NCBI GenBank assembly: GCA_041821565.1
Contig: JBGUEB010000001.1
Coordinates: 1-57,023, forward strand
From: Gammaproteobacteria bacterium
GTDB lineage: Bacteria > Pseudomonadota > Gammaproteobacteria > GCA-001735895
Reading direction: 5' to 3'
DNA length: 57,023 bases
Below, one piece after another: positions 416 to 44,213 of the stretch (its first letter is position 1; every line of letters begins with the position of its first letter). The notes under the pieces are model-generated. The model was not told the origin of the DNA, searched no databases, and saw only the letters and a list, made by a program, of their open reading frames with translations. Both the position numbers and the translations under genes were made by a program.

Positions 416-427
416 CAGTATGTTCGC

Positions 428-485
428 TTAACGCTTCGCATCAGCGGCGCGGCTCTGCCGCGTCCGACTGCATGCGTTTGTAATG
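428..485 (-). repeat. attC-like site, copy 1 (its ORF-proximal box reads CATTAC instead of CATAAC)
   Basis: ttaacgcttcgcatcagcggcgcggctctgccgcgtccgactgcatgcgtttgtaatg. Same family as 1328, 2085 and 3113. Lies 3' of the OsmC-family ORF. Confidence 0.7.
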
Positions 486-626
486 TGGCAAGGGTATATT
501 CCTAACACAAAAAGACGTCAATATGATTAAATTGTATTTACTAGCATGGATGATCGTGCACCAATAATTCGTAACTGGTTTTTGACAAGGGTGTTTTTCA
601 AATTGAATTCTGGCGGTAAATCAAAC

Positions 627-1148: not shown

Positions 1149-1204
1149 TTTCGAGTACCTTCGCAGTGGGTAGAATAATCGAAGTTACTCCAATTAAAGA
1201 ATGA

Positions 1205-1240
1205 TGACAATGTTCAAAAGAGACCGGTTGAACAATGTCA
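1205..1240. promoter_or_regulatory. 13-bp inverted repeat (tgacaatgttcaa-N10-ttgaacaatgtca) in the 5' leader of the OsmC-family cassette
   Basis: 12 of 13 positions are complementary. Located 57-92 nt upstream of the ATG at 1148, within a ~180-nt leader. Confidence 0.3.
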
Positions 1241-1327
1241 AATCATTTGATTGTTTAGACTCGTGGAGGGCTCAGTTGAAATCTGGGGTCAGGATATGCA
1301 CCAGTTGAGTCAGCTGCTGTCGTGCCA

Positions 1328-1386
1328 CATAACGCCTCGCATCAGCGGCCCAGCTTTGCTGGGTCCGACTGCATGCGATTGTTATG
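1328..1386 (-). repeat. attC-like site, copy 2
   Basis: cataacgcctcgcatcagcggcccagctttgctgggtccgactgcatgcgattgttatg. The terminal cataac/gttatg boxes pair perfectly. Confidence 0.75.
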
Positions 1387-1438
1387 CGCAAGATACGTAG
1401 TAATTTCAATAACTACCGTACAGGTTACTAAGTACCAT

Positions 1439-1684
1439 TTATTTGGCATTATCCCGGCGGGATTGCTTTACAAATGTAGAAATATACAAATCTTCCACCT
1501 TATCTCTGGCCCATTGGGTTTTACGCAAAAACTTCAGTGATGATTTTACTGATGGATTACTCTTGAAACAGTTTATGTCGACTCTCTGAGCCATTCCATC
1601 CCAGCCGTAATGCTCTACTAACCTCGCTACAACTTTCGCGAGCGTTAGACCATGCAAGGGATTATTCAATTGTTCACTACTCAT
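1439..1684 (-). CDS. DUF2132 / VF530-family small putative DNA-binding protein
   Basis: 81 aa. '[17 protein letters not shown]....RV.INCF...[23 protein letters not shown]' matches the DUF2132 signature as I recall it. Confidence 0.75.
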
Positions 1685-1776
1685 AACATTCGATGCACCT
1701 ATATTACTCTGAATGTTTTTGGTCGATAACGCGAAGATGAGAGGTGCCGTTTGCGGCGTCGATTTTGACGATCATA

Positions 1777-2025
1777 TTATTCCGTTTTGTTTACAGCTCT
1801 TTTGACACGAATCTTATTACTGGCAACAGTCATATTATTCAAATTTTTCATTGCTACCTTGGCTTCTCCTGGTTTCGGCATTTCCACAAAAGCAAAACCT
1901 TTGGATCCACCGGTGGTTTTATCTGACACTAAATCACAAGATTGTACGGTGCCATATTCCTGAAAAAGAGCCTTTACCTCTCCTTCGGTAGTGCTACGAG
2001 CAAGATTACGAATTATCAATTTCAT
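1777..2025 (-). CDS. RRM (RNP-1) domain RNA-binding protein
   Basis: 82 aa. RNP-2-like 'KLIIRNL' and RNP-1-like 'KGFAFVEM' motifs at the typical spacing. Confidence 0.85.
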   Translation of the reverse strand: MKLIIRNLARSTTEGEVKALFQEYGTVQSCDLVSDKTTGGSKGFAFVEMPKPGEAKVAMKNLNNMTVASNKIRVKRAVNKTE

Positions 2026-2084
2026 AAGTTAATAAGCCATTAAGTGGCAAGTGAATGTGCAGAATTCCATTTTACTGTTTTGCG

Positions 2085-2143
2085 TATAACGCCTCGCATC
2101 AGCGGCGCGGCTCTGCCGCGTCCGACTGCATGCTATTGTTAGG
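2085..2143 (-). repeat. attC-like site, copy 3
   Basis: tataacgcctcgcatcagcggcgcggctctgccgcgtccgactgcatgctattgttagg. Lies 3' of the DapB-like ORF. Confidence 0.75.
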
Positions 2144-2233
2144 CGATATTTTGAATTCCATGCCGGATGGCTGTAATGTGCCCAGTCCAAACGAAATATC
2201 CATCTAGTATATCGCGGGATAGTCCAAGAGATT

Positions 2234-3034
2234 CTATTTGTGTAGCATGTCATCCATGCTGTAAAAGCCTGGTGGTTGGTTGCTGATCCACACTGCGCCA
2301 TCCAGAGTCGCCGGAGCGAAGGCTTTTTGATCGGTAACTCTGCTCGTAATTTCAAGACGTTGACCGGAACCCGCAAAAAATACTGTATTCTCGCAGACGA
2401 CATCACCACCACGCAGTGATGCGAAGCCAATTTTTCCGCGCTCTGGTTTTCCAGTTTCCCCATCACGCGAACGGAGCATTACATCAGACAATTTGACACC
2501 TCTTCCAGTAGCAGCATACTCGCCAAGTTCCAATGCAGTCCCTGATGGCGCGTCAATCTTATTCCAGGGGTGAAAATCGAATATCTCAATATCAAATTCA
2601 TCGTTCAGCATTCCCGCCGCTGTTTTTATCAGCTCATACATGACCATAACCGATACGCTCATGTTCGCCCCTAATATGATTGGCAAAAACTGGCCGGCCT
2701 CAACTAGCTTTGTGTGCTGTGACTCCGTAAATCCTGTTGTTGCAACCATTAGAGGAGTCTGTTTCTCGACTGCCGTTGGTATCAAACTCATAGTGGCCGA
2801 TGCTGCGCTGTAGTCAACAACGACATCGGATTCCTCGCATAAGGCACCAACATCGTCGGTGACCTCGATACCGAGCGGTATTAACCCCGCTAGTGTACCA
2901 AGGTCCTTACCGAGCTCGGACGACCCGGGTCTCTCGCAACCGCCGGCAAGTGTGCACTTGTCGCTTTCATGGATTGCCTTTATTAGTATCTTGCCCATAT
3001 GGCCTGCCGCGCCGAATAGTCCTATTTTCGTCAT
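2234..3034 (-). CDS. 4-hydroxy-tetrahydrodipicolinate reductase (DapB)-like protein, divergent paralogue
   Basis: N-terminal Rossmann 'KIGLFGAAGHMG', 'ATTGF' and 'DAPSGTA' align with E. coli DapB. Start moved to the ATG at 3034; the track used an upstream TTG at 3067. Confidence 0.8.
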   Translation of the reverse strand: MTKIGLFGAAGHMGKILIKAIHESDKCTLAGGCERPGSSELGKDLGTLAGLIPLGIEVTDDVGALCEESDVVVDYSAASATMSLIPTAVEKQTPLMVATTGFTESQHTKLVEAGQFLPIILGANMSVSVMVMYELIKTAAGMLNDEFDIEIFDFHPWNKIDAPSGTALELGEYAATGRGVKLSDVMLRSRDGETGKPERGKIGFASLRGGDVVCENTVFFAGSGQRLEITSRVTDQKAFAPATLDGAVWISNQPPGFYSMDDMLHK

Positions 3035-3112
3035 TTTCTTCTCGCTTTGGTTAGGGGGAATAGACAAAGATTATACGAAAGCTGTCATTGTGTGTAGGCT
3101 GTTTCGATATCG

Positions 3113-3170
3113 CCTAACGCCGGCATCAGCGGCCCAGCCCTGCTGGGTCCGACTGCATGCGTTTGTTATG
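3113..3170 (-). repeat. attC-like site, copy 4
   Basis: cctaacgccggcatcagcggcccagccctgctgggtccgactgcatgcgtttgttatg. Lies 3' of the methyltransferase ORF. Confidence 0.75.
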
Positions 3171-3177
3171 ACCTGGC

Positions 3178-3738
3178 TTACAGTCGTGCGTAATTATAAA
3201 CATTGCTTTGTTCGTGAGTTTGTTTAAACAAATTCGATTGAACGATGAGATTTGGTATCCAGTTATGGATTAAAGGAGGAAAGAGCCATATTGACATGGT
3301 AGACCCAGGTTTAAGAACTCGATACATTTCTGGCAATAATTTATCCAACGGTAATAACGGGAAAGGGATAACACCAAACAATAGGGCCTTATCGATGCTC
3401 TCATTTTCTAGCCCGGTATTAAGAGCGTCTCTCTGCAAGATTGTGACGTTTTTTAAATTAGCCGCTTGTACTTTTTTAGCTACTTCTTTGAGAAATCCTG
3501 AAGATGCATCCAATGCTATTATTTGTCCTCGGTCACCCACCATTTGTGCAGCAGGTATGGTGAAAAAACCTGTGCCACATCCTACCTCCAAAACAGTTTG
3601 ACCCGGCTGAATATCCGCAATTCTCAGTTGCTTCACAGGATCCATAATCCATTTTCTTACTCTACTCCCCATAAGTAATCCGGACGGTTTGAAAATTAAA
3701 TTTATTATTCTTGAATTACCTAAATCTTCTGTTTTCAC
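3178..3738 (-). CDS. Class I SAM-dependent methyltransferase
   Basis: Motif I 'VLEVGCGTGFF' and 'ALD' (post-I), with later 'PGS' region. GTG start at 3738 preceded by AGGGTG. ATG alternatives exist at codons 23 and 32. Confidence 0.75.
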   Translation of the reverse strand: MKTEDLGNSRIINLIFKPSGLLMGSRVRKWIMDPVKQLRIADIQPGQTVLEVGCGTGFFTIPAAQMVGDRGQIIALDASSGFLKEVAKKVQAANLKNVTILQRDALNTGLENESIDKALLFGVIPFPLLPLDKLLPEMYRVLKPGSTMSIWLFPPLIHNWIPNLIVQSNLFKQTHEQSNVYNYARL

Positions 3739-3754
3739 ACTAGTTCACCCTAAG

Positions 3755-3791
3755 GCATAACAGCCTATTTAAAAGGTCGTTGACCTTTTAA
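3755..3791 (-). other. Candidate attI / first cassette boundary: GTTATGC box (- strand) next to a perfect 10-bp inverted repeat
   Basis: rc of 3755-3761 is GTTATGC, the same box type as the attC ends, 17 nt before the GTG at 3738. ttaaaaggtc-gtt-gaccttttaa lies at 3769-3791. Confidence 0.3.
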
Positions 3792-3984
3792 TATATATTA
3801 GCGAGTCGACTTGATAAATTGGGAGTGGGTAATTAGAGATTTTCATCGCATTGCTTCCTCTCGGTTTTTACTGCGGTTAATATTTTGTTCTTTATTATCG
3901 AGTCAATGACTTGATAATACTCTTGAATTTCTCGGAGTTGTTGGTTAAGTTGTTTCGAATAGTTTATCGAAAGGACTCGTTACT

Positions 3985-4711
3985 ATGCCGACTCGAACTC
4001 AATACACTTCTCCATTTTTGCAATCAGTCTCTAATTATATGGCGGTGCGTCGATATAGCAAACGCACAATCAAGTCGTATCTGTACTGGATCAAATATTT
4101 CATTGTCCAACAAAAAAAGCGGCACCCTAAAGAAATGGGCGCGGTAGAAATTGAAAAGTTTTTAACCTATCTTGCAGTTGAACAAAAAGTGTCGATCGCC
4201 ACTCAGAAGCTTGCCTTGAACGCTCTGGCTTTTTTATACAACCGGGTGCTTGAACAACCACTGGGTAATCTGGGCGAGTTCAATCGAGCCAAGCGGCAGC
4301 GTAATTTACCGATTGTTTTAACACGTCAGGAAGTTTCGCTATTACTATCCCGAATGAAGGGCGTAGACCAGCTGATGGCATCAATGATTTATGGTTCAGG
4401 ATTGAGGCGAACCGAGGCAGTACGCTTACGCGTCAAGGATGTAGACTTCGATCATCAGGAATTACAAATATGGAATGGCAAAGGTTCTCATAATCGGTTG
4501 ACTACTCTGCACTTGCTCGAATCGGGAGCTGGCCGGTTTTTGCTCCGAAACGTCGGACCGCTGCAAAGCCGGCATACACTACATCCATGTAGATAACATT
4601 CGCACGGTGCAAGAGCAACTCGGTCACCAGGATGTGAAGACTACAGAAATCTACACCCATGTTTTAAAGCGAGGCGCGCACGGGGTGCGTAGCCCGTTCA
4701 GCGATTTGTAA
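3985..4711 (+). pseudogene. intI: Integron integrase (IntI) pseudogene: in-frame internal deletion plus frameshifting 64-nt insertion
   Basis: The N-terminal 175 aa align by eye with VchIntIA/IntI1 ('YSKRTIKSYLYWIKYFI..KRHP..MG..EIEKFLTYLAVEQKVS..TQ..ALNAL.FLY', 'GSGLRRTEAVRLRVKDVDFD', 'IWNGKGSHNR'). The ORF jumps straight to 'HLLESGA' and stops at 4596. In the +1 frame it continues '[37 protein letters not shown]', ending at 4711. Confidence 0.8.
4532..4595. repeat. 64-nt palindromic insertion interrupting intI
   Basis: Removing 4532-4595 restores '[17 protein letters not shown]'. The insert contains the hairpin gccggtttttgc..tccga-aacg-tcgga..gcaaagccggc and a ctacatccatgtag motif. Boundaries are ambiguous by a few nt. 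Confidence 0.5.
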
Positions 4712-11991: not shown

Positions 11992-13192
11992 GTTCCTGTT
12001 CTGGATTCTTTTCCTGACCGCCCTGGTATTGGGGGCGATACTGCTAGTGCAAGAAGACCCGGGTTTTGTTCTGGTCAAGTACGGTGATTATTCGATTGAA
12101 ACCACACTCGCCTTCGGCATCATAGCCGTGGCAGTTGCGACCGTGTTGATCCACTATCTTTTTAAGGTATTGATGGGTGTCTGGCACATACCGCGTGCGG
12201 TAAAAAACCAGTCGAAAGGTCGGCGTTTTAGCAAAAGCCGCAAGCTCTTAAACCAGGGTTTAATTGACCTTGCCGAGGGGCATTACGATAAGGCTGAAGC
12301 CAACCTGGTGAAGATGGTCGACTATAGTGAAAGCCCGTTACTGCACTATCTCGCCGCCGCCCGTGCGGCCCAGCTCCAGGGTCGTTACCAGGAACGAGAC
12401 AAGTATCTGAAGGCAGCGCATGAAGCCAGACCGGAAGCGGAGTTTGCGATTGGCGTCACCCAGGCCGAATTACAGCTGGCGCACCAGCAGACAGAAGAAT
12501 CACTGGCGACATTAACCCATTTACGCGGTATCGCACCGCGTCACGATCACGTGCTGAGATTGCTTGCACGGGTTTACCTGGAACTCGAAGACTGGTCGTC
12601 CCTGATTGAAATATTGCCTGATGTCCAAAAGAAAAAACTGCTCAGTGAGCATCTATTGAAAACCATGGAAACAAAGACTTACCAGGGTTTTCTCGCGACG
12701 GCCAGGAACGATCAGCAAACGCTGGAAAAAGCATGGAACAAGATTCCGAAGACAGCACACACCGATGCCGACCTGGTGGTTTACTACATTAACCTGAGTA
12801 ATCAGGCAGCATCGAGTAGTAGTAATACAGAACAATTGATCGTCGGCTCACTTGGCCAGAAATGGGATAACCGGTTGATTGAGGCCTATGGCCTGTTCAG
12901 GGCCAGCGATCCGAATGAGCAGTTGAAACAGGCAGAAAAATGGCTCGATGATTATGCTAAAAACGAATACCTGCTGCTTGCCCTGGGTCGAATTTGCATC
13001 CGGGCGAAACTCTGGGGCAAGGCTCAAAGTTACCTGGAAGCGAGTATTGGCGTAAGAGCCATGCCAGCCAATTGCCTGGCGCTTGCCGAACTGTTGAGTG
13101 ATCATTTGCAGCAAAAAGACAAGGCGTCAGAGTACTATCAGAAAGGGCTGAGGCTTAGCCTGAGCGAACCGGCTTCGGCAACCAGCATTTGA
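11984..13192 (+). CDS. hemY: HemY-like TPR membrane protein
   Basis: Two N-terminal TM segments plus TPR-like repeats. Overlaps the hemX stop and takes the last position in the hem operon. Confidence 0.8.
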   Translation: MFKFLFWILFLTALVLGAILLVQEDPGFVLVKYGDYSIETTLAFGIIAVAVATVLIHYLFKVLMGVWHIPRAVKNQSKGRRFSKSRKLLNQGLIDLAEGHYDKAEANLVKMVDYSESPLLHYLAAARAAQLQGRYQERDKYLKAAHEARPEAEFAIGVTQAELQLAHQQTEESLATLTHLRGIAPRHDHVLRLLARVYLELEDWSSLIEILPDVQKKKLLSEHLLKTMETKTYQGFLATARNDQQTLEKAWNKIPKTAHTDADLVVYYINLSNQAASSSSNTEQLIVGSLGQKWDNRLIEAYGLFRASDPNEQLKQAEKWLDDYAKNEYLLLALGRICIRAKLWGKAQSYLEASIGVRAMPANCLALAELLSDHLQQKDKASEYYQKGLRLSLSEPASATSI

Positions 13193-13276
13193 TCTATCCC
13201 CGGGGTATGTACCTCATCGCATAAAAATGGCAACATGGTTAGTCCCCGTGTCCAGGCAAATCGATGGAGGTGAACC

Positions 13277-13909
13277 ATGGCTAACAAATCAGTCACTATC
13301 AAGGCGGCGCAAGACGGTCCTTATATTGTCAAGGATTTACAGAGTTTGAATAATCGCAATGGCACACTCGATTGCAAGGAGGCCATGGGCCTGTGCCGCT
13401 GTGGTGCGTCGGCGAATAAGCCCTTCTGCGATGGTTCCCACAAGAATATTGGTTTCAGCAGTGAAAACCAGCTCGATCCGGAGAAGGATAGACTGGATAC
13501 CTACGTGGGTAAAAAAATAACCATTCACGACAATCGCAGTATCTGTGCGCATGCCGGATACTGTACTGATGGCCTCCCCGCCGTATTTCGCCTGCAAGAG
13601 GAGCCATTCGTTGATGCCGATGGTGCAAGTGCCGAAGAGATCATCAACGTTATTAACCAGTGCCCGTCGGGCGCCCTGAGTTATAGCGTTGAAAATGTAA
13701 ACGAATCTTTGGAAGCCAGCGAGGCGTTTATATTTATTGCGCCAAATGGTCCCTACGTGGTGAAAGGCGAGGTCGATTTGCTGGAGACGCCCAGGGGCAA
13801 GGGAGCTTCGGAAACCAGCATCACCCTGTGTCGTTGTGGCGCTTCTAAAAACAAACCCTATTGCGATGGTTCACACTGGACCATTGAATTCACCGATGAT
13901 GATAACTAG
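13277..13909 (+). CDS. Protein with two CDGSH iron-sulfur domains flanking a Cys-containing central domain
   Basis: Two copies of 'C.CG.S.NKP(F/Y)CDGSH', at roughly residues 40-55 and 184-199. The central segment contains 'ICAHAGYC' and 'CPSGA'. Confidence 0.85.
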   Translation: MANKSVTIKAAQDGPYIVKDLQSLNNRNGTLDCKEAMGLCRCGASANKPFCDGSHKNIGFSSENQLDPEKDRLDTYVGKKITIHDNRSICAHAGYCTDGLPAVFRLQEEPFVDADGASAEEIINVINQCPSGALSYSVENVNESLEASEAFIFIAPNGPYVVKGEVDLLETPRGKGASETSITLCRCGASKNKPYCDGSHWTIEFTDDDN

Positions 13910-13972
13910 CAAGCCGTCTTCACGGCCCCAGATTCCGGCACAAATCCAGCCTAACGAATTAACGCCTTCGGC

Positions 13973-14040
13973 CCCGTCATCCCGGCCCCCGAGCCCGTCA
14001 TCCCGGTCCCCGAGCCCGTCATCCCGGCCCCCGAGCCGGG
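13973..14040. repeat. 21-bp x3 tandem repeat ending in a 7-bp-stem hairpin
   Basis: Units of cccgtcatcccgg(c/t)ccccgag at 13973, 13994 and 14015. The last unit completes tcccggc-ccccga-gccggga. Confidence 0.9.
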
Positions 14041-14068
14041 ACCCATTCCCTAACAAACAGAGAGAATC

Positions 14069-14428
14069 ATGACCAAACATTACGAAGGCTCGTGCCATTG
14101 CGGCGCGATCAAATTTTCCTACGATGGTGAAGAGATCACCAAAGGCTTGCGTTGTACCTGTTCTATTTGCTCACGCAAGGGCTCGATGATGTCACCCGAG
14201 GCGATCCCGTTGGAAAATCTAAAAGTTGAAGCCGACCCGAACGACATAGGTCTCTACCAATTTGGCAATAAGGTGGCGAAACACTATTTTTGCAATAAAT
14301 GCGGCATTTATACCCACAATGAAATGCTGCGTATGCCGGATCATATGCGTGTCAATATCGGTTGTATTGAAGACCTCGACACTACTGATTTCGAAGTCAT
14401 CGTGTTTGACGGCAAAAATTTGTTATAA
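14069..14428 (+). CDS. GFA (glutathione-dependent formaldehyde-activating / CENP-V-like) family protein
   Basis: 119 aa. 'GSCHCGAIKF' and 'C.CS.C' zinc-binding Cys pattern. Confidence 0.8.
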   Translation: MTKHYEGSCHCGAIKFSYDGEEITKGLRCTCSICSRKGSMMSPEAIPLENLKVEADPNDIGLYQFGNKVAKHYFCNKCGIYTHNEMLRMPDHMRVNIGCIEDLDTTDFEVIVFDGKNLL

Positions 14429-14464
14429 ACCGCTGTTCCCAGGTCAACATTGGGCAAATCATGG

Positions 14465-14698
14465 TTAAGGAGTCTCTGATTAATTCTGAGTCATACAGAT
14501 GCGCGGTTAAAATGCCGAGACGTCGGACCGGTCAGATCAAGGCGCGAATCGCAGCGAAGACCCAAAGCAATCGCTTCGCTCATGGAGCCGGCTCTAGTCA
14601 ATCTATTCGTAAGATTTGCAACGAAGAGATGGACGGTCCGGCGCCCCGGTATTTTAACCAGCAGCTGTTGATTCATGAATTGATCAGAGGCTCCTTAA
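14465..14698. mobile_element. MITE-like 234-bp palindromic element with 22-bp terminal inverted repeats
   Basis: Left TIR ttaaggagtctctgattaattc (14465-14486) against rc of the right TIR gaattgatcagaggctccttaa (14677-14698): 20 of 22 match. Further internal arms also pair (gcgcggttaaaatgccg.. / ..cggtattttaaccagc). Confidence 0.6.
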
Positions 14699-14702
14699 GT
14701 AA

Positions 14703-16262
14703 ATGAATTCTGAAAAGCAGCATATTCTGATTGTGATGGCTGACCAGCTAACCGCGCTGGCGCTTGGTAGTTACGGAAATACTGAAGTTAAAAGCCCCAA
14801 TATTGATCGGCTCGCGCAACAGGGCGTTACTTTCGACTCGGCATATAGCAGCAGCCCGTTGTGTACCCCGGCGCGTTATGCGTTTATGACGGGTCAGAAT
14901 ATCTCACAGTGTGGCGGTTACGATAATGCAGCCTATATGCCGTCCACGATGCCAACCTTTGCGCACTATATGCGGCTCATGGGCTACAAAACCTGCCTCT
15001 CGGGCAAGATGCATTTTGTCGGACCGGATCAATTGCACGGCTTTGAAGACCGGGTCACTACCGATATCTATCCCGCAGATTTCGGCTGGATACCGGACTG
15101 GACCAAACCCGATGAGCGCATCGATTTGTGGTACCACAATATGTCCAGTGTTAAACAGGCTGGAGTTGCCGCGATTACCAATCAACTGGCCTACGACGAC
15201 GAGGTCGGTACCCAGGCAACACGCGCGATTTTCGACCATGCGCGCAGCGAAGATGAGCGTCCATTGTGCCTGGTAACCAGCTTTATCCATCCTCACGACC
15301 CTTACGTCACGCGCCAGAAATACTGGGATCTCTATGAGGATGTCGATATTGCGCTGCCGACAGTGAGGCGCCCACCGGCCGATCAACAGGATGCGCACAA
15401 CAAACGCCTGGAGCAGGCCATCGCGCTGGATGCGGTATCGATCAGCGACGACGAAATCATCAAGGCACGGCGCGCCTACTATGGCAATGTGTCATATATT
15501 GACGAATGGCTCGGACGTTTGCAGGAGACCTTGCAGGCATGCGATATGGCGCGGAATACGACGATTATCTTCACCTCCGACCATGGTGACATGCTCGGTG
15601 AATACGGGCTCTGGTATAAAATGTCATTTCGTGAGTGGTCCTGTCGAATTCCCATGATTGTCTATAATCCGAGCCGCTTCGAGGCGCGTCGCGTATCACA
15701 ACCGGTGGCCCAGGTTGATGTATTACCGACCCTGATCGATATCGCCCACGAAGCTACTGGTGTTTCGAAGCCGTCAGTAATAGACCCCTTGAACGGTCGT
15801 TCGCTGCTGCCATTATGCGACGGCGATGCGAACCAGGATCCCAATGCCTGTGTTAGCGAATACCTGGGCGAGGGTACCGGTGCGCCGATGTTGATGATTC
15901 GACGCGGTCAGCACAAGTACATTTCCTGCATCACCGATCCTGATCAGTTATTTGATCTGCAGGCTGATCCGAATGAGTGCGATAACCTCGCGGCAGACGA
16001 CCCAGGTGAAATTCTTGACGCCTTTCGGCGCGAGGCTTCTGCATATTGGGATGCAAAAGAATTGCAGCAAAAGGTGATAGCCGATCAGAAACGCCGCCGT
16101 GAGGTGCATGCGGCATTGCGTATCGGTCGTTACCAGTCCTGGGACTTTAATCCAGAGCGTAATGCTTCAGAGGAATACACGCGTAGTCATATGGATTTAA
16201 CCCGTTTCGATATTACCTCACGCTATCCGCAGCCGGTTGAGTTTAAACCCGACTCGAAGTAA
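14703..16262 (+). CDS. betC: Choline-sulfatase
   Basis: 519 aa. Sulfatase 'SSPLCTPAR' formylglycine motif. Long collinear similarity to my recollection of Sinorhizobium BetC ('SGKMHFVGPDQLHGFEDRVTTDIYPADFGW', 'HPHDPYV', 'SDHGDMLGE'). Confidence 0.88.
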   Translation: MNSEKQHILIVMADQLTALALGSYGNTEVKSPNIDRLAQQGVTFDSAYSSSPLCTPARYAFMTGQNISQCGGYDNAAYMPSTMPTFAHYMRLMGYKTCLSGKMHFVGPDQLHGFEDRVTTDIYPADFGWIPDWTKPDERIDLWYHNMSSVKQAGVAAITNQLAYDDEVGTQATRAIFDHARSEDERPLCLVTSFIHPHDPYVTRQKYWDLYEDVDIALPTVRRPPADQQDAHNKRLEQAIALDAVSISDDEIIKARRAYYGNVSYIDEWLGRLQETLQACDMARNTTIIFTSDHGDMLGEYGLWYKMSFREWSCRIPMIVYNPSRFEARRVSQPVAQVDVLPTLIDIAHEATGVSKPSVIDPLNGRSLLPLCDGDANQDPNACVSEYLGEGTGAPMLMIRRGQHKYISCITDPDQLFDLQADPNECDNLAADDPGEILDAFRREASAYWDAKELQQKVIADQKRRREVHAALRIGRYQSWDFNPERNASEEYTRSHMDLTRFDITSRYPQPVEFKPDSK

Positions 16263-16359
16263 CAGGTCAGGGAGAAATTACCTGTCAATTTTGCGGATGC
16301 AGATGACGGGGCGAAACATACAATGGCTGCACACTATTACTGCAAATGACCGATAACCG

Positions 16360-17427
16360 ATGATGAACGAGCAAACCATTCCCGACGAAGATTTCATGTA
16401 CCAGGCGCTTGTTAACCGCGATAGCAGCCTGGAAGGCATATTTTATTTCGGTGTGCGGACCACCGGCATTTTCTGTCGCCCTACCTGTAGTGCGCGTAAG
16501 CCCAAAAAAAAGAACGTTGATTATTTCGATTCGGTGCAAAGCGCGCTCGATTCCGGTTATAGACCCTGTAAGGTATGTACGCCCTTAACAAAGGCGGGGG
16601 AAGCACCCGACTGGTTGTGCAACTTACTCGACGAGGTGCACGCGGCTCCGGAGGAAAGTTACAAGGACGAAGACCTGCAAATGCGCCAGATTGATCCGGC
16701 CCGAGTTCGACGCTGGTTCCAGAAACACCATGGCATGACTTTTCACGCCTATATCAAGGCGCTGCGAGTAAACCGAGCCTTTGAGAAGATGAAAAATAAC
16801 CACGATGTTACCAGTACGGCCTTCGACAGCGGTTACGATTCACTCAGTGGGTTCCACCAGGCGTTCAGCGACACCACCGGTTTCAGCCCATCGCAATCTA
16901 AAAATCAATCATTGGTGAATATCACGCGGTTGAGTACACCGCTAGGACAAATGTATGCCGGTGCCAGTGAACAGGGCCTGTGCCTGTTAGAGTTTATCGA
17001 TCGCAAAATGATCGATGATCAGATTGCACAGTTGCAAAAGCAATTGAAGGCTCGCTTCGTCACCGGGGTTAACCAGCATCTGACGGCACTGGAGACGCAA
17101 CTGGCTGAATACTTCGCGGGTAAACGGCGTAAGTTCGATATTCCTCTCGATGTGCGCGGCAGCGAGTTTCAACAAAAAGCCTGGCAGGCTCTGCAGCAGA
17201 TTCCCTATGGTGATACCCGTTCGTACCAGCAACAGGCTGTCGCTATCGGCAATGAGAAAGCGGTACGGGCTATCGCCAGTGCGAATGCAAAAAACCGCAT
17301 TGCAATTGTCATTCCCTGCCACCGGGTGATCGCAAAAGACGGCGGACTCGCTGGCTTCGGCGGGGGTGTCTGGCGCAAAAAATATTTACTCGATCTGGAA
17401 AAACAAAATAATAGCGAACAAGCTTGA
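16360..17427 (+). CDS. ada: Bifunctional Ada-type regulator / methylated-DNA--protein-cysteine methyltransferase
   Basis: N-terminal Ada Zn-Cys motif ('FCRPTCSARKP..C..C'), a central AraC-type HTH, and the C-terminal active site 'IPCHRVI'. Confidence 0.88.
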   Translation: MMNEQTIPDEDFMYQALVNRDSSLEGIFYFGVRTTGIFCRPTCSARKPKKKNVDYFDSVQSALDSGYRPCKVCTPLTKAGEAPDWLCNLLDEVHAAPEESYKDEDLQMRQIDPARVRRWFQKHHGMTFHAYIKALRVNRAFEKMKNNHDVTSTAFDSGYDSLSGFHQAFSDTTGFSPSQSKNQSLVNITRLSTPLGQMYAGASEQGLCLLEFIDRKMIDDQIAQLQKQLKARFVTGVNQHLTALETQLAEYFAGKRRKFDIPLDVRGSEFQQKAWQALQQIPYGDTRSYQQQAVAIGNEKAVRAIASANAKNRIAIVIPCHRVIAKDGGLAGFGGGVWRKKYLLDLEKQNNSEQA

Positions 17428-17447
17428 ACGTTCGAAATTCACTCTTT

Positions 17448-17554
17448 CCCCTCACCCCAACCCTTGCTATGCCCTCGGGTGCTCCCCGGAGGGGCGAGGG
17501 TGAAAACAGCAATGTCGTCGACAAAGTCAACACCTTCTCCCCTGGGGGAGAAGG
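17448..17554. repeat. REP-like palindromic units (family shared with 25190-25366)
   Basis: 17448-17502 is cccctcaccccaacccttgctatgccctcgggtgctccccggaggggcgagggtg. 17533-17554 is the perfect palindrome ccttctcccc-tg-ggggagaagg. Confidence 0.8.
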
Positions 17555-17730
17555 CATGGATGAGGGGGTAAAGCAATCGAAACTAGTAATAGTGATTAAC
17601 CCTCTGATCTACCATATATCCCATCACTCCAGTCCAGTAAACTCGATTCAGAGATAGCGGCCAGTATCAAATAATGTTCAAATAAGCTAAGCATTAGAAA
17701 CTAAATAAAACTCCAGTTCGAGGATCAGGT

Positions 17731-19182
17731 ATGGCCGAAGAAAACCATAATTATATTGCAGGCGAATGGGTTGCCGGGGCGTCTGAAATTGCCAATATCA
17801 ATCCCTCCGATTTATCGGACACTGTCGGACTGTATGCGCAGGCTGATAATGTGCAACTACAGAATGCGCTGGACGCGGCGGCGGTTGCGCAGATCGCCTG
17901 GAGTAAAACAGGTTTGGAGGCGCGATATACCGCTTTAATGAATATAGGCAACGAGTTAATCGCCAATTGCGAGGAACTCGGTACTTTGCTCGCGCGCGAG
18001 GAAGGCAAACCCCAGGCCGAGGGCAAGGGTGAGGTTTACCGTTCGGGACAATTCTTTACTTATTATGCCGCCGAGGTATTACGCCAAATCGGTGACAACG
18101 CTGACTCGGTTCGTGATGGTATCGAAGTCGACGTACGACGTGAACCGGTGGGCATAGTTGCAGTCATTTCACCGTGGAATTTTCCGATGGCTACGGCCGT
18201 GTGGAAAATTGCGCCCGCACTCGCGTTTGGCAATGCGGTTATCTGGAAACCAGCGAATATTGTGCCGGCCTCGGCCGTGGCTTTAACGCGCATCATCGAC
18301 AAACAGAATCTACCCAGTGGCCTGTTCAGCCTCGTAATGGGCTCCGGCAGTACTGTGGGTCAGCACTTGATCGAGAGTCCCATGGTGAACGCGATCAGTT
18401 TTACCGGCTCGGTGCCCGTCGGGCGCGGTATAGCCAAATCGGCGATTGAAAATTTCACCAGGGTACAGCTCGAAATGGGTTCCAAAAACGCGCTCGCGAT
18501 TATGGATGATGCCGACATGGATATCGCAGTTGCCTGTGCCTTGAACGGTGCCTTCGGCAGCACCGGGCAAAAATGCACGGCTTCATCAAGGCTGGTGGTG
18601 CACAGCAAGATTCACGATGCTTTCGTTGATCGCCTGGTAGAAGCCGCGCAATCAATGGTGGTGGGTCATGCGCTCGAAGCCGGCACCCAGATCGGGCCAG
18701 TCGCGAGCGAGGCGCAATTGAAACAGAACCTGGACAATGTGGCGCTGGCGAAAAAAGAAGGCGGTGAACTGCGCTGTGGTGGCGAACAGGTTGAGCGTGC
18801 CACGCAGGGGTATTTCATGACACCGGCGGTTTTTAGCGGTACTCAAAACGACTGGCAGGTGAATCGCGAGGAACTGTTTGCGCCCATGGCCTGCGTGATC
18901 AAGGTCGATTCATATGAAGAAGCCCTGCAGACCGTGAACGATACCCGCTTCGGTTTGACCGCGGGCATCATCACTACCAGTCTTGCGCGCGCCGCAGATT
19001 TTCGGCGTAAGGTGCGAACCGGGTGCGTAATGGTCAACCTGCCGACCGCGGGTACCGATTACCACGTGCCATTTGGCGGTCGAGGTGAAAGCTCTTACGG
19101 TCCGCGCGAACAGGGGCAGTATGCGAAAGAATTTTATACCCACGTGAAAACCGCTTATATCGCCTCTGGCCTGCCCGCCTGA
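17731..19182 (+). CDS. NAD(P)-dependent aldehyde dehydrogenase (alpha-ketoglutaric-semialdehyde-dehydrogenase-like subgroup)
   Basis: 483 aa. 'SPWNFP', 'LEMGSKNA' (catalytic Glu region) and 'GQKCTA' (catalytic Cys). Resembles B. subtilis YcbD-type ALDHs more than BetB. Confidence 0.88.
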   Translation: MAEENHNYIAGEWVAGASEIANINPSDLSDTVGLYAQADNVQLQNALDAAAVAQIAWSKTGLEARYTALMNIGNELIANCEELGTLLAREEGKPQAEGKGEVYRSGQFFTYYAAEVLRQIGDNADSVRDGIEVDVRREPVGIVAVISPWNFPMATAVWKIAPALAFGNAVIWKPANIVPASAVALTRIIDKQNLPSGLFSLVMGSGSTVGQHLIESPMVNAISFTGSVPVGRGIAKSAIENFTRVQLEMGSKNALAIMDDADMDIAVACALNGAFGSTGQKCTASSRLVVHSKIHDAFVDRLVEAAQSMVVGHALEAGTQIGPVASEAQLKQNLDNVALAKKEGGELRCGGEQVERATQGYFMTPAVFSGTQNDWQVNREELFAPMACVIKVDSYEEALQTVNDTRFGLTAGIITTSLARAADFRRKVRTGCVMVNLPTAGTDYHVPFGGRGESSYGPREQGQYAKEFYTHVKTAYIASGLPA

Positions 19183-19194
19183 GGAGATTTCATA

Positions 19195-20181
19195 ATGCGG
19201 GCTAACAGTTATCGAATCGATGCTTTGCAGTACGCCAACTGGTCGAAGAAAATTTTTCGACAAATGCGCGAGGGTAAGGTAGATGCAGTGCATGTCACCA
19301 TTGCCTACCATGAAAACTTTCGTGAAACAGTGGCTAACATCGAAGCCTGGAATAGCGATTTTGAACGTTTTCCAGATTTGATTTTCCAGGGTAAAACCGG
19401 AGAAGACGTGCGCCTCGCGCGCGCGACCGATCGTACTGCTATTTTCTACGGCTTTCAAAATCCGTCCCCAATGGAAGACGATATTCGCCTGGTCGAGATT
19501 CTGCATACCCTGGGCGTCCGCTTCATGCAGCTAACCTATAATAACCAGTCTTTGCTCGGTACCGGATGTTACGAGAATAACGATTCCGGCATTACGCGCA
19601 TGGGAAAGGAAGTGATCGAGGAGATGAACCGCGTCGGACTGGTCGTGGATATGAGTCATTCCGCCGAACAATCGACATTGGAGGCGATAGAGATCAGTTC
19701 GCGTCCGATAGTCATTACGCATGCCAATCCTGGATTCTGGGAACCGGCTTTACGAAACAAGTCCGATACCGTACTGCGCGAACTTGGTGCATCAGGCGGC
19801 ATGCTCGGTTTCAGCATGTACCCGCATCATTTAAAAGGCAAAGGAGATTGCACGCTACAAAGTTTCTGCAAAATGATTGCGGCGACTGCCGAGCTGATGG
19901 GTGTCGACCATATCGGACTCGGCTCTGACCTGTGCCAGGATCAGCCGGATTCGGTGGTCGAATGGATGCGCGTCGGTCGCTGGACCAAAAAGATCGATTA
20001 TGGTGAAGGCTCGGCCGGCAATGCTGGTTTTCCGCCGATGCCGAACTGGTTCAATGATAACCGCGATTTCGGCAATGTTGAGCAGGGCCTGCGAGATGTA
20101 GGTTTCAGTGATGAAGATACTGGAAAAATAATGGGTGATAACTGGCTTCGATTCTTTGATGAGAATTTCGGGCCCGAATGA
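19195..20181 (+). CDS. Membrane(renal)-dipeptidase family (peptidase M19) protein
   Basis: 328 aa. 'DMSHS', 'ITHANP' and 'GLGSD' motifs. GAGGAG RBS 7 nt upstream. Confidence 0.8.
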   Translation: MRANSYRIDALQYANWSKKIFRQMREGKVDAVHVTIAYHENFRETVANIEAWNSDFERFPDLIFQGKTGEDVRLARATDRTAIFYGFQNPSPMEDDIRLVEILHTLGVRFMQLTYNNQSLLGTGCYENNDSGITRMGKEVIEEMNRVGLVVDMSHSAEQSTLEAIEISSRPIVITHANPGFWEPALRNKSDTVLRELGASGGMLGFSMYPHHLKGKGDCTLQSFCKMIAATAELMGVDHIGLGSDLCQDQPDSVVEWMRVGRWTKKIDYGEGSAGNAGFPPMPNWFNDNRDFGNVEQGLRDVGFSDEDTGKIMGDNWLRFFDENFGPE

Positions 20182-21881
20182 ACACTAACTCACAGAAAGA
20201 TAATCGGTTCGACTGTGCGCATCTAAACCCGATGCCAGAGGCAGCGGCTTACCGGCGCCCGCCAGAAGTGGTCATGCGCCTGGCGCGCATGGGCAGTTTT
20301 CATCAAACCAGGCTGTCCTTCATGCGTAGCCTGTTGCGCCGGCTGAAGAAAGAAAAGTGGCGATTCAAACGCCCAGTCTGGGAAATTGGAGATGAAGGAT
20401 ATGGGCGTGCCGTCTATACCGTCATAGGCCCGCAACGTAGTTATTCACTGGTCGCATTTTCGCATAAGCTAGCCGATGACATGCGTTCCGACCGGGTTAT
20501 AGCCACCGCCTGGGACGCAACCTTTGCCCTGTTCGATGGGGTGCCGACCAGTGACGATCTGGATCGATTGCAGGAAAACGTTCCCAGGCAGGAAGCCGGT
20601 CGCATCAGCGATAGCGAGTTGAGCCTGTCGCGGGCGAACCGTTCGGTGCGATTATGGAAGCATGTCATCGACAGTCTCGCGGCAGGGCGGCAACCCGATC
20701 GCCAACAACTGGAGTCGGTCGGCTACCTGGTGCGTACTACTGCGGTTTATGGTTCAGGGAAATTTGGCGCCGCCGATCGATTGACGATCTGCGATCGACC
20801 CGAGCTCAGCGGCCCGTTCCAGGCGGAAATGTTATCGGTCTGGCTCACGCGCGCGTTTTCAATCGACCTGGTTGAACATATTGCGAAAGCCGTCGGCGGC
20901 TCAAAAGCAGTGGTAATAGATTCGGATTTACGCCGACGCATTGGCGTCGGTAATTCAACCGGTTTGGGTATGGCGCCATTTTTAATTAACCATCCGGTCC
21001 TGCTCAATAACTGGATGTTCGCGCGTGAAGAGGCGCTGGCCAGGGTACGCTCGCTTGCCGAGACCAGCACAGGGGCAATTGAAGTTTTCAAACAGCAGCT
21101 CGGCCAGGCAAAGTTTAATGTCTCGCAATGGCATTCCGAACACCCGATACAAATACGGAAACTGCAGCAACTCGGTGCAGACCTGGAAAAGATGACGGCT
21201 TATGTTGAAACCGAATCGTTGAGCGGGAATCATCCCTGGGATCGTTTTTATCGTTGGGCTGAAGAGCAGCTGTCACTGGAGGGGCAGGAGCAGTTGCTGT
21301 CATTAATGCTGGAACCTTACGGTGAGATGGTAGACGGACTGACACAGTGCATGGATGCCGACGAACATCGCAGCTTTTTTATCGATGGTTCGATGGGCAT
21401 AGGCCGTATGCGGGAAATTATTGAAGACCAGTGTGACTGGGCAATCTCAGTTGACTACCAGGAAAACAAAAATCGAGCCCGATTCTGGTACACCTCGGTG
21501 GAAAAGCTTGAACCGCGCGTGGGGGAACGATTCGAAGAAGCGGGTGCGGAGTATGAACAACCCCTCTGTATCGGCTATTTTATACGGCAATTGTACGATG
21601 ACTTGCTCGAGTGGGATCGCGATCAGAGCATTGCCGGATTTTTACTCGCCCATCCGCAGCACCGTCATACAGTCCGACGCGTCCAGACCCTGGTATCACA
21701 TCCCTACTCCGAGATACGCGATAACCTCATAGCTGCCGACATGCTGCCAATCGATTTACTGCGCTGCAAGCTGTCGTTCTTTGGCGCCACCAAATTTGAT
21801 CCGCGCTCCGATCGTTGGGTGCGTATCTGCATGTATCAGGACGCGCCCTTCCCACACGAGTTGTTGGCTAGAGTCGAATGA
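20178..21881 (+). CDS. Conserved-looking hypothetical protein, 567 aa, no recognisable domain
   Basis: Long uninterrupted ORF. ATGA overlap with the dipeptidase stop indicates translational coupling. No motif I can assign. Confidence 0.7.
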   Translation: MNTNSQKDNRFDCAHLNPMPEAAAYRRPPEVVMRLARMGSFHQTRLSFMRSLLRRLKKEKWRFKRPVWEIGDEGYGRAVYTVIGPQRSYSLVAFSHKLADDMRSDRVIATAWDATFALFDGVPTSDDLDRLQENVPRQEAGRISDSELSLSRANRSVRLWKHVIDSLAAGRQPDRQQLESVGYLVRTTAVYGSGKFGAADRLTICDRPELSGPFQAEMLSVWLTRAFSIDLVEHIAKAVGGSKAVVIDSDLRRRIGVGNSTGLGMAPFLINHPVLLNNWMFAREEALARVRSLAETSTGAIEVFKQQLGQAKFNVSQWHSEHPIQIRKLQQLGADLEKMTAYVETESLSGNHPWDRFYRWAEEQLSLEGQEQLLSLMLEPYGEMVDGLTQCMDADEHRSFFIDGSMGIGRMREIIEDQCDWAISVDYQENKNRARFWYTSVEKLEPRVGERFEEAGAEYEQPLCIGYFIRQLYDDLLEWDRDQSIAGFLLAHPQHRHTVRRVQTLVSHPYSEIRDNLIAADMLPIDLLRCKLSFFGATKFDPRSDRWVRICMYQDAPFPHELLARVE

Positions 21882-21897
21882 AGTTGGTTCGTATTGA

Positions 21898-22551
21898 ATG
21901 AAACAGAAACACCCGCTTGCTGAAATCGAATTCTATTTGCGCAAGGCGGCACAGGCGGTGGGACTGGGCTGGGGACTTTCTGAAGAGGCAGGCAAGGCAG
22001 CTCGCTGGCTGTCCGCGTTTGGGTTGCCCGGTGCCGAATTCATGCTCGCGCATTTGCAACAACTGGATGGTAAAGATTACAGGCAGTACCAGCCATCGAA
22101 CCTGAATCATGTCTGGCAGGCACAGGGTGAGTTTCTATGTCCCGTTATTACCGGCGCGGCGCTCGCAGATCGATCAGATCAGATGTTGAGCGGGACAGAA
22201 TTCAGGCTTGGCGCGGTCGCCTATCCCTTATTGCTGGTGGCGATAATTGGGCAAGCGGCCAGATATCACCGTACCACCTTTACCACTAGCTGGGCCGGGG
22301 TTAGTATTAGTTGTTATGAAAATGGCATAAGAGTCGAAGGCAATAGAGATGATCTGTTAGTCACCGGGACTGATTCTGTGAAGTGTGTACAATCAAAGGA
22401 TACAAACCCGCAGTCTCTGCCGTCGACCCTGGCCTGTGATATCGATAACGATGCATGGGCAGCTATCGATAAACTGGCATTTAAAACCTATGCGCCCGCA
22501 ACTGCGGAATCACGCGCCGGTGCGGGTGCGGGTTTGACGGATAACGACTAG
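21898..22551 (+). CDS. DUF3726-like protein
   Basis: 217 aa. 'GLGWGLSEEAGKAARWL' near the N-terminus and C-terminal 'GAGAGLTDND', which I recall as DUF3726 hallmarks. Confidence 0.6.
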   Translation: MKQKHPLAEIEFYLRKAAQAVGLGWGLSEEAGKAARWLSAFGLPGAEFMLAHLQQLDGKDYRQYQPSNLNHVWQAQGEFLCPVITGAALADRSDQMLSGTEFRLGAVAYPLLLVAIIGQAARYHRTTFTTSWAGVSISCYENGIRVEGNRDDLLVTGTDSVKCVQSKDTNPQSLPSTLACDIDNDAWAAIDKLAFKTYAPATAESRAGAGAGLTDND

Positions 22552-42697: not shown

Positions 42698-42829
42698 TAA
42701 TTTCTCCGCATGCTGTGCGCTTATTGTAGACCAGATTTAAGTCAAGAAGTTGTAAACTATTGGTAACTTCATGAATAATCTTAAGATGGCTCCGAAAAAC
42801 CTGCAATCAAGTGTGCAGTTAACGCTTGA

Positions 42830-44014: not shown

Positions 44015-44213
44015 GATGGTTAAATTCGGGCCAGCCAATACACTTTATCGGGAGTGTGTTTCATGTCCTGAAATCATACTGGAATCGATCCGCATTGGCG
44101 AACCGAAGTAGTGGTCTAACAACTAAGGTATGATGATCGGGAACTCTATGGACAATCTTTTTGGATTCGATCATAATTAAACGCTAATATTATTGTTTGG
44201 TTATAAAGCACAA

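Follow-up and report, generated by a model that had tools for sequence, protein, structure and literature searches.

A homDCBA operon in a gammaproteobacterial contig: probable catabolic core of homarine degradation, with an orphan ~560-aa protein

ORF calling in the window, the whole 57,023-nucleotide stretch of DNA analysed here, places four intact, co-directional genes on the + strand at 17731-22551 (Table 1), named below after the operon to which they are assigned. Their coordinates reproduce the intergenic gaps of 12, -4 (an ATGA overlap) and 16 nt given in an earlier note on this DNA, and Pfam confirms the NfeD/SPFH pair that the note had placed downstream. The REP cluster described upstream is likewise present in the 303-nt spacer between ada and homD: a GC-rich element of ~60 nt (17446-17505) has a second copy on the - strand at 25243-25184, and the interval 17533-17554 forms a perfect 10-nt hairpin. 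These REP-like elements have no specificity for the operon. The TTCAGA-17-AATAAT motif is a weak candidate for the homD promoter; the region holds 7 sigma-70-like sites against 6.4 expected from shuffles, and the promoter and terminator scans gave no excess over chance. Rfam detects no RNA family anywhere in the whole window. Further upstream, betC scores 698 bits with the choline-sulfatase equivalog TIGR03417, above its cutoff of 433, and ends 1.47 kb before the operon, in agreement with the ~1.5 kb originally noticed. The ada gene in between was ruled out as an operon regulator, being a complete, ordinary Ada with its PCHR motif intact.

Table 1. Genes and sequence elements at the hom locus (positions in the window)
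Feature	Position	Strand	Remarks
betC, choline-sulfatase	14703..16262		
ada	16360..17427		complete gene
REP-like GC-rich palindromic elements	17446..17567	.	in the ada-homD spacer
sigma-70-like promoter candidate TTCAGA-17-AATAAT	17647..17675	+	~55 nt upstream of homD start
homD, predicted NAD(P)+-dependent aldehyde dehydrogenase	17731..19182	+	483 aa; Pfam Aldedh 486.9 bits
homC, M19-fold amidohydrolase-superfamily protein	19195..20181	+	328 aa; non-canonical 2i5g subfamily
homB, orphan ~560 aa	20178..21881	+	567 aa; no Pfam family
homA, DUF3726 protein	21898..22551	+	217 aa; Pfam DUF3726 (PF12525)

The first protein, HomD, is assigned to the aldehyde dehydrogenase superfamily by its Aldedh match and by the predicted catalytic Cys (GQKCTA) and Glu (EMGSKN), both kept in 60 orthologues. 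Among the alpha-ketoglutarate semialdehyde dehydrogenase equivalogs of NCBIfam (NF042993 / NF052305), the best model is the KGSADH GucD, at 470 bits against a cutoff of 770, and the DioxValDh model gives 461 bits against 750. By these scores, HomD is nearest to the alpha-ketoglutarate-semialdehyde / 2,5-dioxovalerate dehydrogenases, below the equivalog cutoffs and not a member, and the label "KGSADH-like" given to it earlier is a fair one.

For the second protein, HomC, Peptidase_M19 (PF01244) is matched at 248.8 bits (cutoff 26), the match beginning at profile position 28. The closest solved structure is 2i5g, an "amidohydrolase" (E 3.5e-56), with canonical dipeptidases reaching only 1e-11 to 1e-23. 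HomC has in common with peptidase family M19 (renal dipeptidase/dehydropeptidase I, Sco3058, GliJ) the TIM-barrel amidohydrolase fold, the two beta-site His residues and the catalytic Asp. In contrast, HomC shares with 2i5g the replacement of two elements of the binuclear zinc site, the HxD motif and the bridging Glu: relative to Sco3058 and DPEP1, which we take to represent the canonical ligand positions, the N-terminal IDGHND becomes IDALQY and the bridging Glu of GAEGGH becomes Gln in GFQNPS. All of these features, the retained residues as well as the replaced ones, are conserved in 64 orthologues. HomC lacks the canonical HxD and bridging-Glu metal ligands of M19, which makes a simple metallo-deformylase role uncertain. 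The renal dipeptidase of the family, "dehydropeptidase I", hydrolyses N-acyl dehydroamino acids.

The third gene, homB, is the most conserved and most diagnostic of the operon. Its homologues number more than 8000 (1523 clusters at 50% identity), and every one of them is named hypothetical; the RefSeq name of homB is still "hypothetical protein". Pfam has no family for HomB, 53 diverse members gave single chance matches only, and no PDB chain is matched by sequence; the same search with HomA gave nothing useful. Foldseek with the AF2 model of HomB (pLDDT 89.8, pTM 0.90) returns no PDB match at E<=1e-3 (best E 0.25, TM 0.10), and the protein-kinase-like folds that recur among the non-significant matches, at E>=0.6, were treated as noise. 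HomB has neither a Pfam model nor a solved structural relative, although its predicted model is confident, and the initial statement that no motif can be assigned to the 567-aa protein holds. The start of the 567-aa reading is fixed by the ATGA overlap with homC; conservation starts near residue 26, and residue M19 of HomB is a possible alternative start.

The fourth protein, HomA, matches DUF3726 at 47.4 bits (cutoff 22.1) over residues 7-65 only. The 'WGLSEEAGKAARWL' segment and the C-terminal 'GAGAGLTDND' singled out in the earlier note are present in the translation and conserved across 66 orthologues; a literature search under "DUF3726" found no paper. Natural HomB-HomA fusions, with HomA at the HomB C-terminus, occur in many Burkholderiales and others (P0121, P0125, P0129) and support a HomA-HomB complex, with HomA as the putative partner subunit of HomB. 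The AF2 model of fusion P0121 (pLDDT 89.3, pTM 0.90) yields Foldseek matches that do not appear in the search with HomB by itself. Of the 21 best, 19 are Ldh_2 structures, among them AllD, YiaK, ComC and DpkA, with probability up to 0.99 but E-values of at least 0.065 (0.065-0.5) and TM (target) of 0.27-0.40. The Ldh_2 family (PF02615) is the structurally nearest one to the DUF3726 domain in this fusion model, whereas HomA is ~120 residues shorter, has no Pfam Ldh_2 match, reaches only 13% probability over 57 columns in hhalign, and is gapped at the GxxSHG-type segment in that low-probability alignment. In the model, DUF3726 seems to resemble part of an Ldh_2 fold and not a recognisable flavin domain. 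The FAD-binding motifs that have been reported in HomA (PMC13236597) were not reproduced by Pfam here.

The conservation of the neighbourhood, which had been proposed as a check, is readily apparent from 57 loci with full flanks, centred on the 567-aa gene and with genes mapped by tblastn. An M19 gene stands beside homB in 55/57 loci, a DUF3726 gene adjoins it in 52/57, and an ALDH gene accompanies it in 51/57, two genes upstream, or three if a BCCT gene lies in between. A divergent LysR gene (homR) is near homB in 48/57 loci, a BCCT transporter gene in 30/57 and an Ldh_2 gene in 28/57; the full-length Ldh_2 gene flanking about half of the loci is probably homE. The order elsewhere is LysR (divergent), ALDH, M19, (BCCT), 567-aa gene, DUF3726, (Ldh_2), (BCCT), with the genes in parentheses being variable. 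This order is seen, among others, in Ruegeria, Leisingera and Shimia and on the annotated Phaeobacter plasmid pP72_a, where sarcosine-oxidase-like (mgd-type) genes lie directly upstream of the hom genes; mgd genes are not in view in the window. The window HomB is 57-66% identical to the genes at the homB position in these complete layouts (57-62% for the Ruegeria and Phaeobacter loci specifically). Collectively, these counts bear out a conserved catabolic module of four genes.

This arrangement corresponds to the homABCDER operon for homarine (N-methylpicolinate), described by Ferrer-Gonzalez et al. (Nat Microbiol, March 2026; PMC13236597) and linked to its substrate by knockouts and metabolomics. 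Homarine is an algal N-methylpyridinium betaine, which the operon converts to N-methylglutamate; an N-methylglutamate dehydrogenase encoded elsewhere then yields glutamate. In Cobetia sp. OBi1 the order of ACFLL8_11490-11520 is homE-homA-homB-homT-homC-homD-homR, and in Ruegeria pomeroyi SPO3188-3192 are homA, B, C, D and R, with HomC described as a peptidase and HomD as an ALDH (PMC13236597). SPO3187 is an Ldh_2-type "comC" and SPO3186 a BCCT transporter. Growth on homarine is lost in homB, homC, homD and homR knockouts, the homD deletion being that of SPO3191 / ACFLL8_11515, with which the window homD agrees in position and predicted function (PMC13236597). In the same study HomA and HomB were modelled as a heterodimer, their genes are adjacent in 97.7% of genomes, and of the HMMs, that of homB is long with high specificity, that of homA weaker and those of homC and homD non-specific.

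The window shares with the published operon the core order, the predicted functions (ALDH, M19 peptidase, long orphan, small partner) and the taxonomic spread, namely marine members of the Gamma- and Alphaproteobacteria plus some carriers that are not marine. It contains the HomB-family gene, an adjacent homA, and homC and homD immediately upstream in the same direction. It differs in having ada and betC upstream and no homR beside homD: tblastn finds no LysR, BCCT or Ldh_2 homologue in the 57-kb window, hence no homR, homT or homE, the last two being variable auxiliaries also in the published set (PMC13236597). The window's lineage carries the homDCBA core alone. Orthology was judged from synteny, from the 57-62% HomB identity and from matching descriptions, SPO3188-3191 and ACFLL8_11495-11515 being compared by description only; no R. 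pomeroyi entry occurs in the 90% clusters to which four Ruegeria HomB proteins belong. On this basis, the four genes are very probably the catabolic core of the homarine operon, in the order homD-homC-homB-homA (probability about 0.85).

The scheme first proposed for the operon is partly upheld. Its conserved module, its quaternary or N-methylated amine substrate class (BCCT genes in many orthologous operons, homarine as the published substrate) and its two unknown proteins as candidate novel catalytic subunits (the published heterodimer model and the natural fusions) all agree with the results, and its ALDH/hydrolase logic is plausible. The module is not "undescribed", having been published as homABCDER in March 2026 (PMC13236597), and the link to choline-O-sulfate, considered below, finds no support.

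The metabolic data allow a most likely route to be suggested, in which substrate, products and gene requirement are those of PMC13236597 and the assignment of steps is our own. There, 13C7 homarine gave 13C6 N-methylglutamate, which indicates that the methyl group stays while one carbon is removed, and the accumulating features were C7H9NO5, C6H9NO4 and C6H9NO3. In the first step, the HomA-HomB complex, with HomB as the presumed catalytic subunit, would open the N-methylpyridinium ring by cleaving C5-C6 with retention of the N-methyl group, leaving C6 as an N-formyl group and C5 as an aldehyde in N-formyl-N-methyl-2,3-dehydroglutamate 5-semialdehyde (C7H9NO4). HomD, a KGSADH-like ALDH apparently built for 2-substituted 5-oxopentanoates, would then oxidise the aldehyde to the acid (C7H9NO5); its nearness to 2,5-dioxovalerate dehydrogenases was counted as support for the mechanism. 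In the third step the M19-fold hydrolase HomC may deformylate the N-acyl dehydroamino acid to C6H9NO4 and formate, a role for which the action of dehydropeptidase I on such compounds was taken as support. Finally, the N-methyl enamine/imine would be reduced to N-methyl-L-glutamate, where present probably by HomE, since DpkA, which reduces imines and acts as an N-methyl-amino-acid dehydrogenase, belongs to the Ldh_2 family. The observed C7H9NO5 and C6H9NO4 equal two of the proposed intermediates, formulas that also fit other isomers.

The same logic is known from an isomeric N-methylpyridinium carboxylate. Trigonelline (N-methylnicotinate) is reportedly degraded in Acinetobacter baylyi by the TgnABCDE pathway of Perchat et al., PNAS 2018. 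Its ring is opened without loss of the N-methyl group, the route passes through an N-formyl intermediate, the aldehyde is oxidised and formate is released hydrolytically, the end products being succinate semialdehyde and methylamine. In contrast, the hom pathway ends in N-methylglutamate, and the two systems have no homology. Neither HomA, HomB nor 53 HomB relatives match a flavin-reductase/oxygenase Pfam family, and no structural match of this kind was found.

In a second reading of the ring opening, HomA, HomB and HomC form one multi-subunit enzyme with new chemistry, HomC not being a deformylase and the system not being of the TgnAB flavin type. It is favoured by a distant cluster on a Sinorhizobium pSymB-type replicon, where a HomB-like gene lies with an IclR regulator, an ABC transporter, a class-III aminotransferase and an SSADH; beside it is a HomC-like protein, 40% identical, in which the IDALQ and GYQN motifs recur, and a small protein sits between the two. 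The presence of HomC-like proteins in this cluster and, as PA5396, in the dgc operon suggests that HomC may be a ring-opening subunit and not a later hydrolase, which fits with its loss of the alpha-metal ligands and bridging Glu, with the lack of a known fold relative for HomB, and with a HomA model that is closer to a partial Ldh_2 fold, as in NAD(P)H enzymes, than to a flavin reductase. However, the Foldseek E-values and hhalign probability for HomA are weak, the small Sinorhizobium protein has no detectable similarity to HomA, and FAD motifs are reported for HomA (PMC13236597). This reading is rather unlikely as it stands, and it refines the homarine assignment without offering another identity for the operon. 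A broader version appears slightly better placed, though still short of even odds: HomB and HomA, possibly with the metal-site-degenerate HomC, may constitute a new N-heterocycle ring-opening enzyme unrelated to TgnAB, with a catalytic HomB of no solved fold relative and an Ldh_2-derived HomA, within a wider module family (e.g., the Sinorhizobium pSymB-type with aminotransferase and SSADH) acting on other substrates.

It is improbable that the module of this particular lineage has another N-heterocyclic or N-methylated compound as its substrate, for example a pyridinium betaine other than homarine. The dedicated regulator, the transporter and HomE are all missing from the window, and the HomB family is large; its distant branches, 28-33% identical, occur in other genomic settings such as that of Sinorhizobium, which indicates that substrate specificity varies within the family. 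The window HomB, however, stands with the complete hom layouts and is only ~29% identical to the divergent branch, the order of all four core genes is unchanged, and about one third of hom-carrying genomes, SAR11 included, lack homE, with transport being redundant (PMC13236597).

The association with betC, in turn, does not extend beyond the close relatives of the window. The betC-ada-hom adjacency is limited to L083-L086; the next relatives (L001, L002) carry a different sulfatase, 26% identical and without the Choline_sulf_C domain, and a sulfatase match next to the operon was found in 0/80 GTDB loci. As this adjacency is lost outside the immediate lineage, betC was rejected as a functional partner. 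The earlier statement that PA5396 and PA5397 belong to the Pseudomonas aeruginosa dgc operon proved correct, PA5396-PA5397-dgcA-dgcB being one operon with PA5396 as a putative dipeptidase (PMC13492115). The dgc and hom operons are alike in that an M19-like "dipeptidase" lies within an N-methyl-amine catabolic operon, whereas dgc is listed without a homB or an ALDH and has DgcA and DgcB as partner enzymes. PA5397 is presumably a DUF3726 protein. Among the window ORFs scanned, no dgcA or dgcB lies beside the operon, whose neighbours are ada and nfeD/SPFH, and the window operon and the dgc-linked pair are paralogous but different systems. A choline-O-sulfate, glycine-betaine or dimethylglycine-related module formed with betC, for which the genuine betC nearby, the PA5396/PA5397 precedent (PMC13492115) and the non-canonical M19 protein 2i5g as the nearest solved structure to HomC can be cited, is thus highly improbable, given the unrelated ada in between, the lineage-bound adjacency, the absence of an adjoining dgcA, dgcB, gbcAB or sox candidate, and the genetics that tie the orthologous operon to homarine (PMC13236597).

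The operon therefore represents a known pathway, and what is new here is the orphan status of HomB, the HomB-HomA fusions, the apparent partial Ldh_2-like nature of DUF3726, the predicted ligand loss in HomC and the occurrence of homDCBA without homR, homT and homE. Homarine ranks among the most abundant small nitrogen metabolites in marine plankton, and the hom operon gives bacteria including SAR11, SAR92 and the roseobacters their route from it to glutamate. Recognition of homDCBA makes a correct annotation of the four genes of the window possible. Neither HomA nor HomC resembles what its family name suggests, and HomB has no recognisable fold; a solution of HomAB would define a new route of pyridinium ring opening.

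Four intact, co-directional genes make up the operon, in agreement with the earlier note, which had also placed it between REP elements and an NfeD/SPFH gene pair; both borders are confirmed, the latter by Pfam downstream of homA. homD and homC are separated by 12 nt, homC and homB overlap by 4 nt (ATGA), and homA starts 16 nt after homB. For the ALDH, the nearest NCBIfam models are alpha-ketoglutarate-semialdehyde and 2,5-dioxovalerate dehydrogenases, with scores well under their cutoffs. Two peptide motifs cited previously are both found in the translation, and both are conserved. A second palindrome follows either copy of the REP-like element, with a hairpin at 17533-17554, and Rfam returns no RNA families across the window. 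The remaining window genes are of housekeeping character (argH, hemCDXY, gidAB, parAB, atp and MSHA-type pilus genes, the last together with secretin and ATPase genes at 49.9-55.6 kb). GC content is 0.42-0.46 at positions 1-4600 and 42000-52000, vs ~0.51, and the ORF at 3985-4596 resembles a phage integrase and is apparently truncated.

Features of the probable homDCBA region and of a distant paralogous plasmid cluster
Feature	Position	Strand	Description
homD, ALDH	17731-19182	+	intact ORF, 483 aa; Pfam Aldedh
homC, M19-like	19195-20181	+	intact ORF, 328 aa; Pfam Peptidase_M19
homB, orphan	20178-21881	+	intact ORF, 567 aa; without Pfam family
homA, DUF3726 protein	21898-22551	+	intact ORF, 217 aa; Pfam DUF3726
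GC-rich REP-like element, ~60 nt, CCCCTCACCCC...GGGGNGAGGGTG	17446-17505	+	intergenic spacer ada-homD
Same element, second copy	25243-25184	-	intergenic spacer HAD-gidA
betC + ada	14703-17427		upstream of homDCBA
Paralogous cluster, Sinorhizobium meliloti plasmid pMl9	L088:7295-17704		IclR, HomB-like (29%), 242-aa hypothetical, HomC-like M19, ABC transporter, class-III aminotransferase, SSADH

Homologues of homB number more than 8000, all unnamed, and form 1523 clusters at 50% identity. The genome scan for the 567-aa gene gave 598 confirmed loci, the best 80 of which were analyzed by tblastn mapping; neighbors were counted over the 57 of these with full flanks. Co-conservation of the four genes, set beforehand as a test, is strong: of the 57 loci, 55 have the M19 gene alongside the 567-aa gene, 52 the DUF3726 gene and 51 the ALDH gene. 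A mostly divergent LysR gene is present in 48 of the 57, a BCCT transporter in 30 (at the far end of the operon or between the M19 and 567-aa genes) and an Ldh_2-family oxidoreductase in 28 (between LysR and ALDH, or after DUF3726), all three calls being upheld by Pfam. Carriers among the best 80 loci are mostly marine Gammaproteobacteria and Roseobacter-group Alphaproteobacteria; the gene is also present in records labelled Gordonia and in MAGs labelled Acidimicrobiales, Variovorax and Haliangium. The full layout is found on Phaeobacter inhibens plasmid pP72_a (RefSeq): LysR / aldehyde dehydrogenase, membrane dipeptidase, BCCT transporter, hypothetical protein, DUF3726 protein, Ldh family oxidoreductase. 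The stretch directly upstream of its homR (L087:1-788) holds genes for sarcosine-oxidase-like subunits that may be mgd (N-methylglutamate dehydrogenase). In P. inhibens DSM 17395, the 262-kb plasmid carries HomB-like sequence at two places.

This arrangement corresponds to homABCDER, the operon for homarine (N-methylpicolinate) catabolism (Ferrer-Gonzalez et al., Nat Microbiol 2026; PMC13236597). The gene order reported for Cobetia sp. OBi1 is homE, homA, homB, homT (transporter), homC, homD, homR, and SPO3188-3192 of R. pomeroyi are homA, B, C, D and R, with HomC a predicted peptidase and HomD an ALDH (PMC13236597). Papers independent of that study describe SPO3187 as an Ldh_2-type 'comC' and SPO3186 as a BCCT transporter. 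Read from homR, the published operon is an exact match to the seven-gene order seen in the mapped loci. Because published order and predicted functions equal those of the mapped loci, the window genes are very probably homD-homC-homB-homA (probability about 0.85), the match to the SPO and Cobetia genes being made through gene order and published descriptions. The same study modelled HomA and HomB as a heterodimer, with adjacent genes in 97.7% of genomes, and found the homB HMM long and specific, that of homA weaker and those of homC and homD non-specific; knockouts of homB, homC, homD or homR abolished growth on homarine (PMC13236597). The earlier interpretation therefore holds for substrate class and modular logic, whereas the system, having been published in 2026 (PMC13236597), is not undescribed.

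Nor does the proposed tie to choline sulfatase survive. The betC gene is bona fide and ends 1.47 kb upstream of the operon, with a complete ada gene in between. The order betC-ada-homDCBA-nfeD is common to the close relatives L083-L086 (HomB identity 83-91%). In slightly more remote relatives (HomB 76-77% identical) homR is present and the sulfatase downstream is another one, not of the choline type. The adjacency is lineage-specific synteny near the chromosome origin and, because more distant relatives differ, does not reflect a functional link. In one such locus, L001 (HomB 77% identical), the genes between homA and SET/HAD/NfeD (12336-15449) encode a PreATP-grasp protein and a sulfatase that is not a choline sulfatase. 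In the window lineage homR, homT and homE are missing within 57 kb, and no LysR, BCCT or Ldh_2 homologues occur anywhere in the 57-kb window.

The Ldh_2 genes that flank homA or sit between homR and homD are mostly from roseobacters (loci L005-L082; e.g. L040:12295-13305, L008:12300-13322; also L087:9385-10392). homE was reported absent in 94% of Alphaproteobacteria, and R. pomeroyi was likewise said to lack it (PMC13236597), yet SPO3187 adjoins homA and an Ldh_2 gene abuts about half of the mostly alphaproteobacterial loci. By identity these genes fall into three subgroups (71-81%, 54-56% and 36-39%), a split that may explain the mismatch.

Structure prediction, proposed earlier for the 567-aa protein, gave a confident AF2 model (pLDDT 89.8, pTM 0.90), and no well-characterized family was assigned: HomB has no Pfam family and no sequence relatives in the PDB, and Foldseek against the PDB returned no match at E<=1e-3. 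Among the non-significant matches, protein-kinase-like folds (IRE1, APH(3'), NahK, PINK1, CDPK1, Pan3, MLKL) repeat, with E of at least 0.6 and TM ~0.1; this sole recurring theme is probably noise. The invariant residues include many Arg, Lys, Glu, Trp and Tyr, and neither an invariant Cys nor a nucleotide-binding motif was found. Many homB cluster representatives are 760-940 aa long and carry a C-terminal DUF3726 domain after the 567-aa domain, fusions that connect the third gene with the fourth in Rosetta-stone fashion.

A natural HomB-HomA fusion was also modelled confidently (pLDDT 89.3, pTM 0.90). Foldseek matches of its DUF3726 part are nearly all Ldh_2-family (probability up to 0.99, E at least 0.065), and hhalign of HomA against Ldh_2 gives a weak match covering the N-terminal helices. 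On the predicted models, DUF3726 therefore resembles an Ldh_2 fold of reduced length. A FAD-domain signal was sought in HomA and not reproduced. HomC is closest to PDB 2i5g (E 3.5e-56) rather than to canonical dipeptidases; of the residues typical of the M19 binuclear site, the HxD motif and the bridging Glu are missing and the two His and the Asp are retained, a pattern shared by 64 orthologues.

The trigonelline pathway serves as a mechanistic analogue of homarine ring opening, and the step assignments proposed here derive from this analogy and from family assignments. HomAB would open the ring at C5-C6 to give N-formyl-N-methyl-dehydroglutamate semialdehyde (C7H9NO4), HomD would oxidize it to C7H9NO5, and HomC would remove the formyl group, yielding C6H9NO4 and formate. 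An imine reductase would then produce N-methylglutamate, the agent probably being, where present, the Ldh_2 protein HomE, which shares a family with the N-methyl-amino-acid dehydrogenase DpkA. Substrate, end products and the need for the genes have been shown experimentally: labelled homarine passes to N-methylglutamate, with one carbon lost and the methyl kept, and on to glutamate via N-methylglutamate dehydrogenase (PMC13236597). The proposed intermediates C7H9NO5 and C6H9NO4 coincide with two of the three unidentified features reported (C7H9NO5, C6H9NO4 and C6H9NO3; PMC13236597), formulas that other isomers share. The C6H9NO3 feature would be compatible with N-methylpyroglutamate or with the semialdehyde after loss of its formyl group.

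Replicons of the pSymB type in Sinorhizobium carry HomB-like genes of ~29% identity, and further distant matches come from Neorhizobium, Aminobacter and the archaeon Natrinema. The HomC-like protein of the Sinorhizobium cluster is 40% identical to HomC and has the same non-canonical motifs. The HomB/HomC pairing is thus older and broader than homarine catabolism, and HomC may belong to the core machinery. The HomB fold, the HomA likeness to Ldh_2, the HomC motifs, this distant cluster and the Ldh_2/homE mismatch go beyond the published work. The remaining interest lies in the chemistry of HomA, HomB and HomC: a new-fold, non-Tgn-type pyridinium ring-opening complex within a wider family is a tentative possibility.
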